Shown here: in pieces, positions 29,129 through 55,828 of the stretch
Position numbering within the stretch: the first letter of the stretch is position 1
How the letters are laid out: every line of letters starts with the position of its first letter
Origin: Escherichia coli O157:H7
Lineage (GTDB): Bacteria > Pseudomonadota > Gammaproteobacteria > Enterobacterales > Enterobacteriaceae
Assembly: GCF_013167455.1 (NCBI RefSeq)
Contig: NZ_CP038328.1
Strand: one strand, 5' to 3'
DNA: 64,000 bases
The notes under the pieces: generated by a model
Told to the model about the DNA's origin: nothing
The model's database searches: none
Seen by the model: only the letters and a program-made list of their open reading frames with translations
Position numbers and translations under genes: made by a program

Positions 29129-29380
29129 CTAACAGGATGCTCTGACTCGCAATTCATCCAGCAGTTTATCATTTCCCATAATGTCACTTACCCTCATCGG
29201 TAAAAAAATTGCCTTTCGACCATTACGATACATCATTGATTTTGGGGTTTCAGGGAAGTAATCCATTTCGACTATAACTGACAGGTCATCACGACGTATG
29301 ACTGCGTATTTGCAACTAAATAGTTTCTTTATTTTTTCCACGATGCCTCCGAGTTTATAAGTACAAACGGTTATATCCAC
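29129..29380 (-). CDS. Hypothetical protein
   Basis: 83-aa ORF in an AT-rich segment; no motif. Confidence 0.3.
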   Translation of the reverse strand: MDITVCTYKLGGIVEKIKKLFSCKYAVIRRDDLSVIVEMDYFPETPKSMMYRNGRKAIFLPMRVSDIMGNDKLLDELRVRASC

Positions 29381-29526
29381 ATAGAGACAAAAATATTAAT
29401 CTGAAAAATATTTATTTCACGCCGTATATTTGATTATTTAATGTGCAGGTACAATGACTTTTATTTTTTGTTGTGTATATAATCAAATATATGGTTATTT
29501 TTCACCCTGCGCATTCAGCGCGCAAC

Positions 29527-29616: not shown

Positions 29617-29772
29617 TTACTCCTCAGGTTCGTAAGCTGTGAAGACAGCGACCTCCGTCTGGCCGGTTCGGATTCGTACCTCGCAGAGGTCTTTCCTCGT
29701 TACCAGTGCCGTCACTATGACGGTTAAACAGATGACGATCAGGGCGACTAACATCGCCTTTTGCTGCTTCAT
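29617..29772 (-). CDS. hok: Hok-family type I toxin (small membrane killer protein)
   Basis: MKQQKAMLVALIVICLTVIVTALVTRKDLCEVRIRTGQTEVAVFTAYEPEE, near-identical to Hok/Gef family members as recalled; RBS AAGGAG; the in-frame upstream extension of the ORF is mok-like. Confidence 0.8.
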   Translation of the reverse strand: MKQQKAMLVALIVICLTVIVTALVTRKDLCEVRIRTGQTEVAVFTAYEPEE

Positions 29773-29951
29773 AGCCTGCTTCTCCTTGCCTTTCGGCACG
29801 TAAGAGGCTAACCTACGTTTGTGAAGCATAGATTGGGCCTCAGATTAATGTTAAGCGTCTTGCAGGACGCGTAATGTTAACTGGGGCTTTTCTCTATCTG
29901 CCTTTTGGTGTTCATGCCTGAGGCAGATAGCCTCAAGCACCCATTATGATT

Positions 29952-31073
29952 TTAACCAAAGTCTTTGTATCTATAAAGAGGCACAATATTACTCGATATA
30001 TCATCATGTGTGCGCCTTATTCCAAACATTTTGGAAACAAAGCGTTCCCTCACTCCCGACATATCCAGTATCTGCTTCCAAGAAGATATATCCAGCAATT
30101 CAACTGCACAGGAAAGTAAGCGAGGTTTTTCCTCAGGGATTAACTCATCCCCCATCTCTCCTTTAATCGTCCCTCTTTTATTTAGATGGATAAATCCCGT
30201 TCTCATTTGTTGTGGCGTAATCAGCCCCAAAACCGTAGCACGATAAATACACATGCGAAGACTGATTTTCCATCGTTCTTTGAAATTAATTAGTGCATTC
30301 CAGTCAAGATGCGATCCTCGCATTTTAGGAAATTCATTAACGAACGAAACTCTAGGTACAAGGAATGCGCTCGAAAAATAATCCGCATGATGTTCTGTAA
30401 TTTTATCCCCTGTTATAATCCCTTCATGCAAAACAAGATGCCCCAGTTCATGACCGAGATCTGAGCGAAATCGACACACACTCTTTTTCGCGGAATTTCT
30501 AATTATCAATGGGCGTTTACTATTAATAGTAAACGCATCAATACGATCATCCACGCCAGATACATGAGCAACAACAACCCCAATACTTTCCACGAAATTA
30601 ACCATTGAAGATATCGGTCCCAGCCCCAAACCCCAATACCTTCTACAGGCCTCGGCAATTCTTTCAATATCTTCATCGGAGTTCAAAGGTAATCCGGACG
30701 TATCAGGAAAGTTCAATTCTGGAAGAACTATTTCTGTTTCCAAACACTTTACAAACTGCTCCAAAATTTCAGCTCGAGCCAGAATACTATTAGTTAAGGA
30801 CTGCGTCCTTGATCTCTTGCTTCTGAAATGGCAGTTCTCGCTGTCTAATGGTGATTTCCTTCCAGTGAAGAAAAACGACTCTTTAACATCCAGATAATCT
30901 GCAAGAGCTGTCAACATCTGAGATGAAGGGGGATAACCACGCTCTAACTTGTTTATAAATTGCCGAGTCACCCCCAAAGCAGTAGCAAGCTCTTCGCCCG
31001 TAACCCCTTTAGCCTGACGAGCTAATTTTAAGCAGTCACCACGATAATTACCTATAGAATCAAATAGTTCCAT
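29952..31073 (-). CDS. HTH_XRE DNA-binding domain fused to ImmA/IrrE-family (M78) zinc metallopeptidase
   Basis: N-terminal HTH (LARQAKGVTGEELATALGVTRQFINKLERG) and HEXXH site (LGHELGHLVLHE); start ambiguous between 31073 and 31109; AT-rich. Confidence 0.7.
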   Translation of the reverse strand: MELFDSIGNYRGDCLKLARQAKGVTGEELATALGVTRQFINKLERGYPPSSQMLTALADYLDVKESFFFTGRKSPLDSENCHFRSKRSRTQSLTNSILARAEILEQFVKCLETEIVLPELNFPDTSGLPLNSDEDIERIAEACRRYWGLGLGPISSMVNFVESIGVVVAHVSGVDDRIDAFTINSKRPLIIRNSAKKSVCRFRSDLGHELGHLVLHEGIITGDKITEHHADYFSSAFLVPRVSFVNEFPKMRGSHLDWNALINFKERWKISLRMCIYRATVLGLITPQQMRTGFIHLNKRGTIKGEMGDELIPEEKPRLLSCAVELLDISSWKQILDMSGVRERFVSKMFGIRRTHDDISSNIVPLYRYKDFG

Positions 31074-31710
31074 ATTTATCACTATCTGCTTTTTTCGCAT
31101 TCTTAACACGCCGCTGCAAATTCAGCGGTGGTGTTTCCACGGCCTCTGGCAATACGTCAGTATTAGCTGCTTGTACTGGAGCATGGACTTTAGACACCAA
31201 TTCGTATCTACTCACTACATTATTTGATGAATCAAAACCTATCAGGGCTAAAAGCCACGTTGGAGGTTCAATATCTTCATCTTTTTTATTTGCAGATGGT
31301 AATTTTTCAGCCAGAACACGCCATGTAACATCATGTTCAAAATTAACATCATCTTCAAAAAGAGATAACTGACGACACTCAACATCATTTTTACATAAGC
31401 GATGTTTCTTTTTTGGTGAATCCAGTTTATCGGTCACAAACTGTAACGGCACCCTGTTCAGGGTAAACACAAAATTCAGAGGTGTTGAAAGAATCGCCAC
31501 TCCTTTGAGTTTTTTATGATTTTTTACAAGAAAGTTTTTTATCCATCCATAGGCCCTACATCCATTAATCCAGTTATCATCATACTCATGGCGATGGAAC
31601 CATAATTCGCCAAGTACGTTAGCAAATTGCTGAAGAAGATTGATAACAGATTTTTCATCCAAACAAGGATTGATTTCAAAACACGGTTGGAGATTCTGTT
31701 CAGACGGCAT
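31060..31710 (-). CDS. Uncharacterised protein, upstream partner of the HTH-peptidase gene
   Basis: 216 aa from Met MPSEQNLQPC... with RBS GAGGG; stop overlaps the next gene start; no motif recognised. Confidence 0.5.
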   Translation of the reverse strand: MPSEQNLQPCFEINPCLDEKSVINLLQQFANVLGELWFHRHEYDDNWINGCRAYGWIKNFLVKNHKKLKGVAILSTPLNFVFTLNRVPLQFVTDKLDSPKKKHRLCKNDVECRQLSLFEDDVNFEHDVTWRVLAEKLPSANKKDEDIEPPTWLLALIGFDSSNNVVSRYELVSKVHAPVQAANTDVLPEAVETPPLNLQRRVKNAKKADSDKYGTI

Positions 31711-31864
31711 AAGGTATCCCTCTCTCTTAAAACTCCGCTCATCTTTACGCAAAATTTTATTTTTGTAAACCTAATCTTTAGGGGATTTCACGAATTCGTC
31801 AACCAGTCGAACAAACTTTAACCACAATACATATTTATCTACATTGATATGTGTATCGCTAACA

Positions 31865-32095
31865 CTATTGTGGGCATTCAGCTAGTATTACCAAGCCTTC
31901 AGGTGCGCGAAGTTGTTCCGCACAGTGCAGCAGCGCATCAGTCGCTTCCTTAAGCGTCACAGTGTCGCCATCACCCAGTCCTGCAATTTTTGCGTGCCTG
32001 ACAAACGCCGCGCAAAGGTCGTTAAACGCCCCTGCCCGCACATCCGCCAGGAAAGCGTTGGCAGCAGCCAAATCCTGGTAGTCAATCCCGCTCAC
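31865..32095 (-). CDS. Hypothetical small protein
   Basis: 76-aa ORF with start/stop overlap to the upstream gene. Confidence 0.35.
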   Translation of the reverse strand: MSGIDYQDLAAANAFLADVRAGAFNDLCAAFVRHAKIAGLGDGDTVTLKEATDALLHCAEQLRAPEGLVILAECPQ

Positions 32096-32529
32096 TGTGC
32101 CACCTCCTGAAAATTACCCTGATAAAACGCCAGTGCGCGCTGCATAACTTCGCTCTTCCGGCACTCGCTACAGATTATGTTCTGACGCCTGTCGTAGCGG
32201 CGTATTTCTCCGTCTGGTAATGACCAGATAAGGTCCGGATCATCCACAGATGTTTTCTTCAGATTTGCCCTTGAGAGTTTTTTGCGGGCGTTTTGCCAGT
32301 CCTTACGCGCCTGTTCAGACGGGAATAACCCGTAACCAGAGTTGTATACATCGCCACTGGCAACCAGCTCTCTGGCGAGAACACTCATCAGATATCTTGT
32401 CGCACCTGTTTTCTCTTCCAGTTGCCGTAACGTCTCGCGGCCGCTCAGACGTACAAGTTCAACAACCTGCCCTTTAATTTTTTCCCGCTCTTCTGGTGTA
32501 AATACTTTTGCCATGGGCGCCTCCGGCAA
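32092..32529 (-). CDS. Hypothetical protein
   Basis: 145-aa ORF downstream of the ydaW-like gene. Confidence 0.45.
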   Translation of the reverse strand: MPEAPMAKVFTPEEREKIKGQVVELVRLSGRETLRQLEEKTGATRYLMSVLARELVASGDVYNSGYGLFPSEQARKDWQNARKKLSRANLKKTSVDDPDLIWSLPDGEIRRYDRRQNIICSECRKSEVMQRALAFYQGNFQEVAQ

Positions 32530-33342
32530 TCACTTTTCCGATGCAACACGGCGGGAAAAATCAGTAATCTGTCGAACAATATCCCGATGCTTGTTCAGCT
32601 CCCGCAGCGCGGCGCAGACACGCTCCCACTTCTGGACATGATTTTTCGCCCGACGCAGTTCACGGTTTGCCATATGCAGCGATGACAAAATCAAATCATC
32701 AGATCGCGTTGCAGTAAACGATGGCAGCGACTGCACAATGTCCGCCACAGTTTCTGTTTTAATATCTTCCTGTGTTGCAGCCTCCTGTACTGGTAACGCA
32801 ACACATGCAGGCTGAGGAAAGGCTTTACCATCAGTTTCCGCTACCGATGCTGCTTTCGGCTCTGCTGGTAAATTATCGCCCGGTATGCAGTAACGAAATT
32901 TACCGTTCTGGTTTACGCGAATCAGGCGTCCTTTGCTGATTGCCATTGCCAGCGTTGAAGCAACTTTGCGGGATGTTGTACCGAACAGCGTAGCCAGTTC
33001 ATCCGCCGTTTGTGGTCCGCGTTGTTCAATCGTCGCGGTTAAATCGCACTCTGAGATTTTCGCTACTGTTGCCGTGGTGGTTTCTTCCGGCAGTTCTGCC
33101 TGCATTGGCTGTTCCTGCTGAACGTTGTTATCGGCCACACGCCAGGTGTATACGCTTTTATCAACGAATCCAGCCTTTTTCAGTTCCCAAAGCTCGTTCA
33201 GCACTTCTTCACGACTGATATCAAGTCGCGCAGCCAGTTCTACCGACGTGGCTTTTCCCATTGCTTTCAGTGCACCAAAAACGGTTTCCATTAAAATTTC
33301 CTCCCGGTAAAAATCACTTCGCAATTCCTGGCTGGACGACAT
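32530..33342 (-). CDS. YdaW-like protein (start may be Met18 at 33291)
   Basis: 270-aa ORF following the DnaC-like gene, as in the Rac ydaV-ydaW arrangement. Confidence 0.5.
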
Positions 33343-34060
33343 TCGGACGCCAGCTCTCCCAGTTAAAATTCACCCATCGCCCGCCGTTCATGGTCATGCG
33401 ATCCATAATCCTCTCGCCGAGCAATGTTTTCATGGCCTCATAGTTCAGGTTTGTCAGCATCCCCACGCTGCGCATCGACGCTGTCCGGCGATCAACAATC
33501 TGGTGCAGCACCACCTGCTCGTTTTTTGTCTCGCGCTGAATGCCAATTTCATCAAGAACCAGCAGATCCACTTCGCACAGTTCCCGCAAAAATTTTTCGC
33601 CTGACTGCCCGTCGTCATAGCTGGCGTGCAGGGCGCTCATAACATCAGCCACGGTAACCACAATCACTGTCTGACCGTCTTTCAGCAGGCGATTCCCGAT
33701 AGCTGCCGCTAAGTGATTCTTCCCGGTACCAGGTTTTCCGCTGAACGCAAAATTTGTACACCCGGTCATCAGTTCATCGGCGATGGATTTCGCCTGGCTT
33801 AACGCGTATCGCTGGCCGTCGTTCTGCACCTGGTAATTCGCAAACGAGCATTTACGGTGCAACGGCTGGATGCCTGAGCGATTCAGAATTTTTTCCACCC
33901 GCAACTGACGATTCAGGCGGTTGATCTCCTCGCTACGTTTCTGGCCTTCAGCAAGTTGCCACTCGCGCCACTCCGCAACCGTTCTGAATGGGGCGGTTAC
34001 ATGTGGTGGGGCCAGTCTGCGGATACGCTCCAGAACGCCTCCTGTCGCAATATTTTTCAT
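33314..34060 (-). CDS. DnaC/IstB-like replicative helicase loader (YdaV-like)
   Basis: Walker A ([17 protein letters not shown]) and Walker B (LLVLDEIG) motifs. Confidence 0.8.
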
Positions 34061-36569: not shown

Positions 36570-37085
36570 ACCATTTATTGGATTAATTCAATATTCTTGC
36601 TGTAGGGGTATAGCCGAGGCCACCAAAGCCCGGAGGTGGTGAAATAAAACCGGGCACAACACGAAGGCGCATTTCCGATATCCATAAAGAGTCGGTCTTG
36701 TCTGTTAAATTTAAATGGTGGGAGTGCGCCTCCGGTTGTAAATAACGACATTGCTGTGTGTAGTCTTGGCGGCATCAGTTCTACTCCGTGGCTGCCCTGC
36801 CGCCCCTTTTTAAAGTGAATTTTGTGATGCGGTGAATGCGGCTGAGCGCACGCGGCACAGTTAAAAGCATCAGTGTTATGGGTGGATTATCCGGCGTTAA
36901 TTGTTAACTGGTTAACGTCACCTGGAGGCACCAGGCACCGCATCAACAAAGTTCACTTCAGTGATGAAAGGTGAGAGAAAATGTTGGATGTAGCTATTGA
37001 AAACCAGAACGGGTGGAATTATAGTGCACCTGCACCTCATAAAACGGGTGCCGGGATTTGCACCCCGATGATCACTAGAGCGCAT

Positions 37086-37109
37086 AACCGCGCCAAAGCG
37101 GTTTTTTTA
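37086..37109 (+). terminator. Intrinsic terminator inside the noncoding region upstream of rha
   Basis: Hairpin aaccgcgccaaagcggtt plus T7. Confidence 0.5.
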
Positions 37110-37274
37110 TGCGTAAAGCGCAGCCACATTCAGATTATGGTGGGGCGTATGGGGCCGTTTTCGGGCGGGCCGGATTCTCTAGTGACCGGTAGTGCAAACC
37201 CTGTACGTCTCACCACCCATGAGATTTGCACCTCCGGTGGTGAGTTTACCAACTTATCACTAGAGGCTGCCATC

Positions 37275-50051: not shown

Positions 50052-50145
50052 ACCGGCGCAGAGGAGACAATGCCGGATTTAAGACGCGGATGCACTGCTG
50101 TGTGTACTGTAGAGTCTGGCGGATGTCGACAGACTCTATTTTTTT
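50052..50145 (+). ncRNA. mcaS: McaS small RNA
   Basis: ACCGGCGCAGAGGAGACAATGCCGG...GTGTGTACTGTAGAGTCTGGCGGATGTCGACAGACTCTATTTTTTT matches McaS as recalled, with terminator; between smrA and abgR. Confidence 0.55.
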
Positions 50146-50153
50146 ATGCAGTT

Positions 50154-54851: not shown

Positions 54852-55178
54852 ATGACTAAAAATACTCGTTTTTCCCCCGAAGTCCGTCAGCGGGCGATTC
54901 GTATGGTTCTGGAAAGTCAGGATGAATATGACTCACAGTGGGCGGCAATTTGTTCCATTGCCCCAAAGATTGGCTGTACGCCGGAGACTCTGCGTGTCTG
55001 GGTTCGCCAGCATGAGCGGGATACCGGGGGCGGTGATGGTGGGCTCACCAGCGCTGAACGTCAGCGTCTGAAAGAGCTGGAACGTGAAAATCGTGAACTG
55101 CGCCGCAGTAACGATATCCTTCGCCAGGCTTCCGCTTATTTTGCGAAGGCGGAGTTCGACCGCCTCTGGAAAAAATGA
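54852..55178 (+). CDS. IS3-family transposase OrfA
   Basis: [41 protein letters not shown]... HTH plus leucine-zipper region. Confidence 0.85.
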
Positions 55179-55828
55179 TGCCACTGCTGGATAAGCTGCG
55201 TGAGCAGTACGGGGTCGGACCGGTATGCAGCGAACTGCATATTGCCCCGTCAACGTATTACCATTGTCAGCAACAGCGACATCATCCGGATAAACGCAGT
55301 GCCCGTGCGCAGCACGACGACTGGCTGAAGAGAGAGATACAGCGCGTATACGATGAAAATCATCAGGTGTACGGTGTGCGTAAAGTCTGGCGTCAGTTGT
55401 TACGGGAAGGAATCAGGGTGGCCAGATGTACAGTGGCACGTCTCATGGCGGTTATGGGACTTGCCGGTGTTCTCCGGGGTAAATGGGCCCGTCGTCCGTC
55501 TGGCACCATCCATCACAGCGATAAAGGCTCTCAGTATGTGTCACTGGCCTATACGGAGCGACTAAAAGAAGCCGGATTACTGGCATCAACAGGGAGTACA
55601 GGCGACTCGTATGACAACGCGATGGCTGAGAGCATCAATGGTCTTTACAAAGCGGAGGTAATACACCGTAAGAGCTGGAAAAACCGTGCAGAAGTGGAAC
55701 TGGCCACACTAACGTGGGTGGACTGGTATAACAATCGACGATTGCTGGGAAGGCTGGGCCATACTCCTCCGGCAGAAGCAGAAAAAGCTTATTATGCTTC
55801 CATCGGAAACGATGATCTGGCAGCCTGA
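55175..55828 (+). CDS. IS3-family transposase OrfB, internally deleted
   Basis: 217 aa; retains HSDKGSQY and [11 protein letters not shown] blocks but lacks the upstream segment that should carry the first catalytic Asp. Confidence 0.7.

Follow-up and report, generated by a model that had tools for sequence, protein, structure and literature searches.

The closest described relatives of the locus analysed here are the Rosmer-type toxin–antitoxin systems. RosmerTA protects against phages; the study that described it took its verified system from E. coli OLC-716 and did not succeed in obtaining a delta-rmrA mutant (Millman 2022). Diverse RmrT toxins pair with an ImmA-type antitoxin, and the RmrT of Gordonia phage Kita depolarises membranes as part of a system that gives narrow defence (Ernits et al. 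2023). The antitoxin gene rmrA is essential in several species. Rosmer-type systems have also been linked to ClpX or ClpP essentiality, namely a toxin–antitoxin pair of an E. coli E101 prophage, pneumococcal RipAB, whose toxin was reported to target the DnaN sliding clamp, and, in a third independent report, systems studied in Pectobacteriaceae by transposon sequencing (Tn-seq). Here we analyse a two-gene cassette at positions 29952-31710 of a 64,000-nt stretch of E. coli O157:H7 DNA (contig NZ_CP038328.1, referred to below as the window). The cassette is very probably a RosmerTA-type type II toxin–antitoxin and anti-phage module, carried as a moron by a lambdoid, Rac-like prophage that is inserted at ttcA.

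The gene pair and its profile matches

The cassette comprises two open reading frames (ORFs) on the minus strand, an upstream rmrT-like toxin gene, below rmrT, and a downstream rmrA antitoxin gene (Table 1). Their coordinates are exactly those of the original prediction, which had been made from the sequence before any database search, and RefSeq agrees with them; in identical genomes it labels the two products at the same coordinates as ‘hypothetical protein’ and ‘helix-turn-helix domain-containing protein’, respectively. Both genes match the PADLOC RosmerTA profiles, and the pair was therefore identified as RosmerTA. RmrA matches the RmrA profile with an E-value of 5.7e-107, and RmrT matches the RmrT profile PDLC03929 with an E-value of 1.4e-18 over profile positions 9-197 of 198. 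The pair is thus recognisable as an already named system, detected by standard defence-finder profiles, and not as a new one. The novelty implied by the original prediction was overstated in this respect, the architecture having been named and provided with profile models (Millman 2022). Its proposal that the upstream gene could be a toxin effector agrees with the match to the RmrT toxin profile of a known defence system. By analogy with the described systems, the cassette would be expected to show toxicity, neutralisation and defence.

RmrA combines a helix-turn-helix (HTH) domain of the XRE type with an M78 (ImmA/IrrE) zinc peptidase domain. The fusion of an XRE HTH to an ImmA/IrrE-type HEXXH peptidase, as originally described, was recovered by Pfam as HTH_3 plus Peptidase_M78, with the HELGH motif intact. 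In an alignment of 118 homologues, H208, E209 and H212 of this motif are invariant, and so is E227, which is a candidate for the third ligand. Between the two domains, the linker carries a conserved H-F-R motif, with F83 and R84 invariant and at least 90% of the homologues sharing H82. In the structural model of RmrA, the predicted local distance difference test score (pLDDT) drops to 62-78 at residues 71-90, which include this motif, and the C-terminal region is all-helical. The motif might serve as a pseudo-substrate or an autocleavage site. The fold matches of RmrA are CapP, IrrE and ImmR. At the level of profiles, its sole NCBIfam match is the spr1629 model (1.7e-47, 162 bits, below the 335-bit equivalog cutoff), and the PADLOC capP and capH profiles match weakly (1e-11 and 1.6e-3).

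The comparison with the verified system of E. coli OLC-716 revealed the same layout of two co-oriented genes, toxin first, with an antitoxin of ~370 aa made of an XRE HTH and an M78 zinc peptidase. The two RmrA proteins share 30% identity over 296 residues (E 2e-36). In contrast, neither sequence nor profile comparison relates the toxin of the cassette to the 239-aa RmrT of OLC-716, and the cassette occupies a slot in a lambdoid nin region. The RosmerTA of Gordonia phage Kita (RmrT-D5) is likewise phage-borne and has an ImmA-type antitoxin, whereas its RmrT has a membrane-localised C-terminus and the toxin of the cassette is predicted to have a restriction-endonuclease-like alpha/beta core. 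The likeness to pneumococcal RipAB (Spr1630/Spr1629) and to the E101 pair rests on the Rosmer-type antitoxin side; the ClpX/ClpP essentiality seen with both predicts the same dependency for the cassette. Overall, the locus holds an HTH-M78 antitoxin with an HEXXH motif, an adjacent and co-oriented small gene upstream of it, and a two-gene unit that is mobile across contexts.

The claim that the two genes are translationally coupled was borne out as far as the arrangement goes: the stop of rmrT and the start of rmrA overlap by 14 nt, and the same overlap was found in the Proteus and Tenebrionicola homologues (L003, L007), with 26 nt in a further homologous pair (L009). This overlap would be consistent with translational coupling. 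The 216-aa ORF of rmrT begins at an ATG, and a longer, TTG-initiated version would cross the promoter-like units described below. The foreign, AT-rich look of the cassette, which had been judged by eye, was confirmed by computing GC in sliding windows: the content is 40.0% for the cassette (37.9% for rmrT and 41.0% for rmrA) against 50.8% for the window. The cassette is approximately the minimum-GC 1759-bp stretch of the 64 kb; sliding windows as low or lower make up 0.24%, and all of them overlap it.

Predicted RmrT fold and promoter-like units

As noted in the original prediction, the 216-aa protein has no recognisable motif. No Pfam match was obtained for RmrT even at E<=10, nor for any of the 113 family members, and NCBIfam gave no match. 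PDB sequence searches with the toxin profiles returned nothing meaningful, and a Foldseek search of RmrT against AFDB50 returned only uncharacterised members of its own family. RmrT does match PHROG 5786 (function unknown) with an E-value of 6.6e-72. An exhaustive profile search at E<=1e-3 yielded 126 representative clusters for the family, nearly all of ~200 aa. Reading the RmrT sequence by eye only, we noticed no hydrophobic transmembrane-like segment, which suggests a soluble protein of an uncharacterised family.

The AlphaFold2 model of RmrT, built on a 113-sequence alignment, reached a pLDDT of 88.2 and a predicted template modelling score (pTM) of 0.77. From the N-terminus, it runs through a pair of helices, three strands, two short helices and a further three strands to a C-terminal tail that is less ordered, and it contains a restriction-endonuclease-like alpha-beta-beta-beta-alpha-beta core. 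The modelled fold is endonuclease-like: the predicted core resembles the PD-(D/E)xK restriction-endonuclease-like fold (NaeI, BglI, SwaI and others). Conservation within the family concentrates on D44 (93%), E111 (85%), Q114 (88%), R131 (85%), E/D135 (78%) and R/K/Q90. Position 79 on strand 2 is D in 33% of the 113 members (acidic in 37%), and strand 3 carries R/K90 without an acidic partner. D44, E111, Q114, R131 and E135 could together form a variant active site.

Two promoter/operator-like units with the consensus GGTTKAC-N17-WAAAGAT lie in tandem between rmrT and the preceding ORF. The pattern has two matches in the 64 kb, both of them here, against 0.15 expected, a count that is circular within the window, from which the pattern itself was derived. 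Stronger evidence for the units comes from their conservation across divergent loci: GGTTGAC(A)AAA precedes the toxin gene in each of the nine divergent loci examined, including those of Pseudomonas and Mesorhizobium, usually with an A/T-rich hexamer 17 nt further on and often with a second unit. The tandem units can be read as sigma70 promoters (TTGACx-17-xAxxxT) and may provide the cassette with a promoter of its own, which would be needed for expression in the lysogen because the early-right operon is repressed there. They may also act as the operator for the HTH of RmrA. The near-palindrome at the -35 of unit 1 was considered as operator evidence and dropped, as it is not conserved in the other loci.

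Table 1. Coordinates of the cassette, its predicted features and the surrounding insert, numbered from the first letter of the window.
Feature	Position	Strand	Remarks
rmrT-like toxin gene	31060..31710	-	216 aa, WP_001138877.1
rmrA antitoxin gene	29952..31073	-	373 aa, WP_000418464.1; XRE HTH, M78 zinc peptidase and helical C-terminal region
rmrT stop / rmrA start overlap, 14 nt	31060..31073	-	ATGGAACTATTTGA, from sequence
HTH_3 (XRE) DNA-binding domain	30873..31031	-	residues 15-67; Pfam PF01381, 1.5e-12
Peptidase_M78 (ImmA/IrrE) domain	30237..30590	-	residues 162-279; Pfam PF06114, 2.6e-12
HEXXH zinc-binding/catalytic motif HELGH, H208-E209-L-G-H212	30438..30452	-	read from sequence
H82-F83-R84 motif, linker between HTH and peptidase	30822..30830	-	conservation in 118 homologues
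Promoter/operator-like unit 1, GGTTGAC-N17-TAAAGAT	31774..31804	-	TTGACG as putative -35, inside near-palindrome TTGACGAATTCGTGAA
Promoter/operator-like unit 2, GGTTTAC-N17-TAAAGAT	31741..31771	-	33 nt downstream of unit 1, ~30 nt before rmrT ATG
Whole cargo insert relative to related prophages	29943..32090		junctions by comparison with other genomes
76-aa gene remnant	31865..32095	-	RefSeq pseudogene missing its N-terminus; inside the cargo insert

Homologous loci, insertion slot and distribution

In every complete locus inspected, a member of the toxin family directly precedes an M78 peptidase gene; HTH plus M78 is on record in all those loci except L012 and L016/L017, where only M78 is. In Proteus lambdoid prophages the pair has an equivalent place, with the replication genes on one side and DUF1367/Q on the other, and it was also found in a Tenebrionicola prophage, in an enterobacterial chromosomal islet with housekeeping genes on either side, in a Mu-like prophage, where mor and the lysis genes flank it, and on metagenomic contigs, one of which has it adjoining a RES-domain gene. 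On two E. coli plasmids, the neighbour of the toxin member is an XRE family regulator, judged from annotation alone. At the loci found by searching with RmrA, in Pseudomonas aeruginosa and Mesorhizobium, the upstream protein belongs to the same toxin family with E-values of ~1e-44 to 1e-47, scores that may partly arise by construction, as those proteins or close relatives may be in the profile alignment. With this caveat, the RmrA clade and the RmrT family appear to form a mobile unit of two genes that move together. The P. aeruginosa pair is flanked by insertion sequences, with DDE transposase genes on both sides, and the Mesorhizobium pair adjoins deaminase and RES genes. More generally, distant RmrT/RmrA members adjoin RES-domain proteins and a large deaminase-domain protein, in defence- or toxin-like neighbourhoods; the positions noted for these neighbours and for the P. 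aeruginosa transposase genes are L011 1642-2883, L016 4843-7146, and L014 1-1433 and 4663-5834.

The host prophage is arranged in the order intR-xisR, recET-kilR, a repressor pair, ydaT, the replication genes, DUF1627 and DUF977, followed by a remnant ORF, rmrT, rmrA, sok/hokD, DUF1367, DUF1364, the Q-like DUF1133 gene, lysis and structural genes. On one side of the cassette are the replication genes (ydaV-like, 33314-34060) and on the other the Q-like gene, and it sits beside an intact hok, as had been proposed. The adjoining hokD is intact (29617-29772 in RefSeq, minus strand), and the sok RNA was located at 29767-29942 (Rfam RF01794, 120 bits), so that both the hok ORF and the sok antisense RNA are present. 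The end of the hokD/sok locus and the stop codon of rmrA are 10 nt apart. A scan for consensus promoters and terminators found no terminator-like site between rmrA and sok, and read-through from the cassette into hok/sok is thus possible.

The boundaries of the inserted DNA were derived by comparison with other genomes. On the sok side, the left junction is sharp: in ~1084 genomes, the shared part of the cassette query is limited to 29900-29942. On the right side, the sequence found in many genomes sets in again near 32091. The insert was therefore placed at ~29943-32090. In a cargo-less relative in BL21, similarity stops at 29942 and resumes at 32218, and the gap from hok/sok to DUF977 is only 155 bp. 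The 76-aa remnant within the insert matches the C-terminal part of the 195-239-aa phage families phrog_492 and phrog_368, and is present at >=80% coverage in 30 genomes only, equal to the number of cassette carriers. It is probably the leftover of a gene disrupted during cargo exchange. Its GC content is ~55%, unlike that of the AT-rich cassette.

The whole cassette was detected in only 30 of 5426 complete E. coli genomes, and it is 100% identical in all 25 carriers listed (of 30). This prophage is found in both O157:H7 and O103:H2, and its protein accessions are identical in the two. A scan of IMG/VR returned five loci, three identical to the cassette and two Proteus-like. In other genomes, the DUF977-hokD slot holds QueH, an alpha/beta hydrolase, beta and sce7726 family proteins, KilA-N, ParA, DUF5677, DUF4406, Ead/Ea22-like genes with DUF7167, an HNH endonuclease, an IS1 element, or nothing. 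The slot is a cargo hotspot, in line with the original prediction. Several of the alternative cargos (seen in genomes H31, H35, H41, H53 and H56) could be uncharacterised defence or counter-defence genes, and the DUF977-hokD slot of Rac-like prophages is worth mining for more defence genes.

Alternative readings, proposed mechanism and other elements of the window

Several observations speak against a RosmerTA-type toxin–antitoxin and defence module. The PADLOC profile score of RmrT is moderate (65 bits), and BLASTP and hhalign comparisons of RmrT with the verified 239-aa E. coli RmrT found no relationship, which means that its toxicity is extrapolated from gene context. The canonical PD-(D/E)xK residues are missing from strands 2 and 3 of RmrT, leaving its nuclease activity uncertain. 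A simple consensus promoter scan did not flag the upstream units. Finally, the phage collection contained neither cassette DNA nor, by tblastn, a toxin homologue, and none of the isolated phage genomes in it carries the toxin.

Of the rival explanations, a pure addiction module, which would stabilise the prophage by post-segregational killing as hok/sok does and play no part in defence, seems improbable. It would account for the toxin–antitoxin architecture, the adjoining hok/sok, the plasmid-borne homologues and the essential rmrA of several species. However, the two unrelated RosmerTA systems tested to date did protect against phages, distant members lie in defence-like neighbourhoods, and the addiction and defence roles are not mutually exclusive. 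We consider it still far less probable that the cassette is a remnant of horizontally acquired DNA that no longer functions and is decaying, so improbable as to be nearly negligible. A truncated gene adjoins it and several prophage structural genes are frameshifted in some carriers, yet both ORFs are intact without a single difference among the listed carriers, all catalytic and family-invariant residues are kept, and conservation extends to the overlap and the upstream units.

Since the domains and folds are those of ImmR/ImmA, IrrE/DdrO and CapH/CapP, and the cassette lies within the early-right operon, a prophage induction switch was also weighed, in which a self-cleaving repressor acts after DNA damage and the upstream gene encodes a phage accessory protein. 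In ImmR/ImmA of ICEBs1, DdrO/IrrE of Deinococcus and CapH/CapP of the cyclic-oligonucleotide-based anti-phage signalling system (CBASS), repressor and protease are separate proteins, whereas in the cassette they are fused and paired with a toxin gene. These switches regulate excision genes, the DNA-damage regulon and the CBASS operon of CD-NTase plus effector, none of which is adjacent to the cassette: intR/xisR lie ~12 kb away, the neighbours are hokD, DUF977 and DUF1627, and no DdrO-like gene adjoins. The HTH of RmrA precedes the peptidase, which is the reverse of the order in IrrE/PprI, where an N-terminal peptidase precedes an HTH and then a GAF-like sensor domain; the C-terminal region of RmrA is all-helical. 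Moreover, the prophage has its own repressor/Cro-like pair ~4 kb upstream, the cassette is absent from almost all related prophages, and the two genes have moved together into plasmids, a Mu-like phage and loci outside phages, with no integrase, CBASS or regulon partner beside it. Taken with these points, a switch of this kind is very unlikely.

For a RosmerTA-type module, the following course of events can be proposed. RmrA would neutralise RmrT, as suggested by the literature on the family, and would probably repress the operon through binding of its HTH at the GGTTKAC repeats. As in other Rosmer systems for which this has been reported, ClpXP of the host is probably required for neutralisation too. 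A competing phage, on infection, would disable RmrA, and the freed RmrT would arrest or kill the cell, resulting in abortive infection. More speculatively, the fold hints that RmrT may act on nucleic acid, and a proteolytic or sensing role may fall to the H-F-R linker of RmrA or to the conserved tail at the C-terminus of RmrT.

A bolder version of this model is doubtful, and we offer it tentatively. According to it, the RmrT family would be a new toxin class derived from a restriction-endonuclease fold with a rearranged active site and restrained by RmrA together with ClpXP proteolysis; the H-F-R linker or the RmrT tail would be the cleavage or sensor element perturbed by phage, and RmrA would autoregulate through 33-nt-spaced direct repeats rather than a palindrome. 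If so, carrier strains of Shiga toxin-producing E. coli (STEC) would depend on clpX/clpP. As the RmrT family is apparently soluble, confidently modelled, endonuclease-like in its predicted fold, always paired with one RmrA clade and accompanied by a conserved upstream element, it offers a tractable case for toxin control by a peptidase antitoxin and ClpXP. The analysis assigns a likely function, toxin–antitoxin and defence cargo, to two genes that RefSeq labels as hypothetical or by their HTH domain in O157:H7, O103:H2 and other STEC genomes. The cassette is useful as an annotation and as a model, but specialists in phage defence would not find it surprising.

A number of further elements were recorded in the window. 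An 83-aa ORF at 29129-29380 (minus strand) matches phrog_1813 (function unknown) and lies in a very AT-rich stretch, with a GC content of ~31% at 29200-29499. Its position and length are those of ‘rem’ in Rac-SA53 and BL21, and RefSeq gives a 70-aa hypothetical protein in O157:H7. Just downstream of the Q-like gene, RefSeq annotates a tRNA-Met at 27407-27477 (minus strand). ARAGORN found no tRNA in the whole window, and the Rfam tRNA match at these positions is weak and partial, scoring 37 bits over model positions 7-64 of 71; a degenerate or atypical tRNA of the prophage may be present here. Also downstream of the Q-like gene, the prophage small RNAs AgvB (anti-GcvB, plus strand, 96 bits) and STnc100 (minus strand, 150 bits) lie back to back at 27076-27330.

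Near the immunity region, three prophage small RNAs, DicF, isrK and C4 antisense RNA, are clustered at 36755-37220 (plus strand). A second low-GC stretch (~41%) extends over 41300-43700 around ralR/xisR/intR and includes, at 42069-42247 (minus strand), the RalA antitoxin RNA (219 bits) of the type I ralR system; with RalA present, the prophage has a toxin–antitoxin system there in addition to hok/sok. Outside the prophage, the host small RNAs FnrS and McaS and an ALIL pseudoknot were found, at the sites 46557-46674, 50052-50147 and 55133-55249. The ALIL pseudoknot near 55.1 kb, we presume, may mark an IS3-family insertion sequence.

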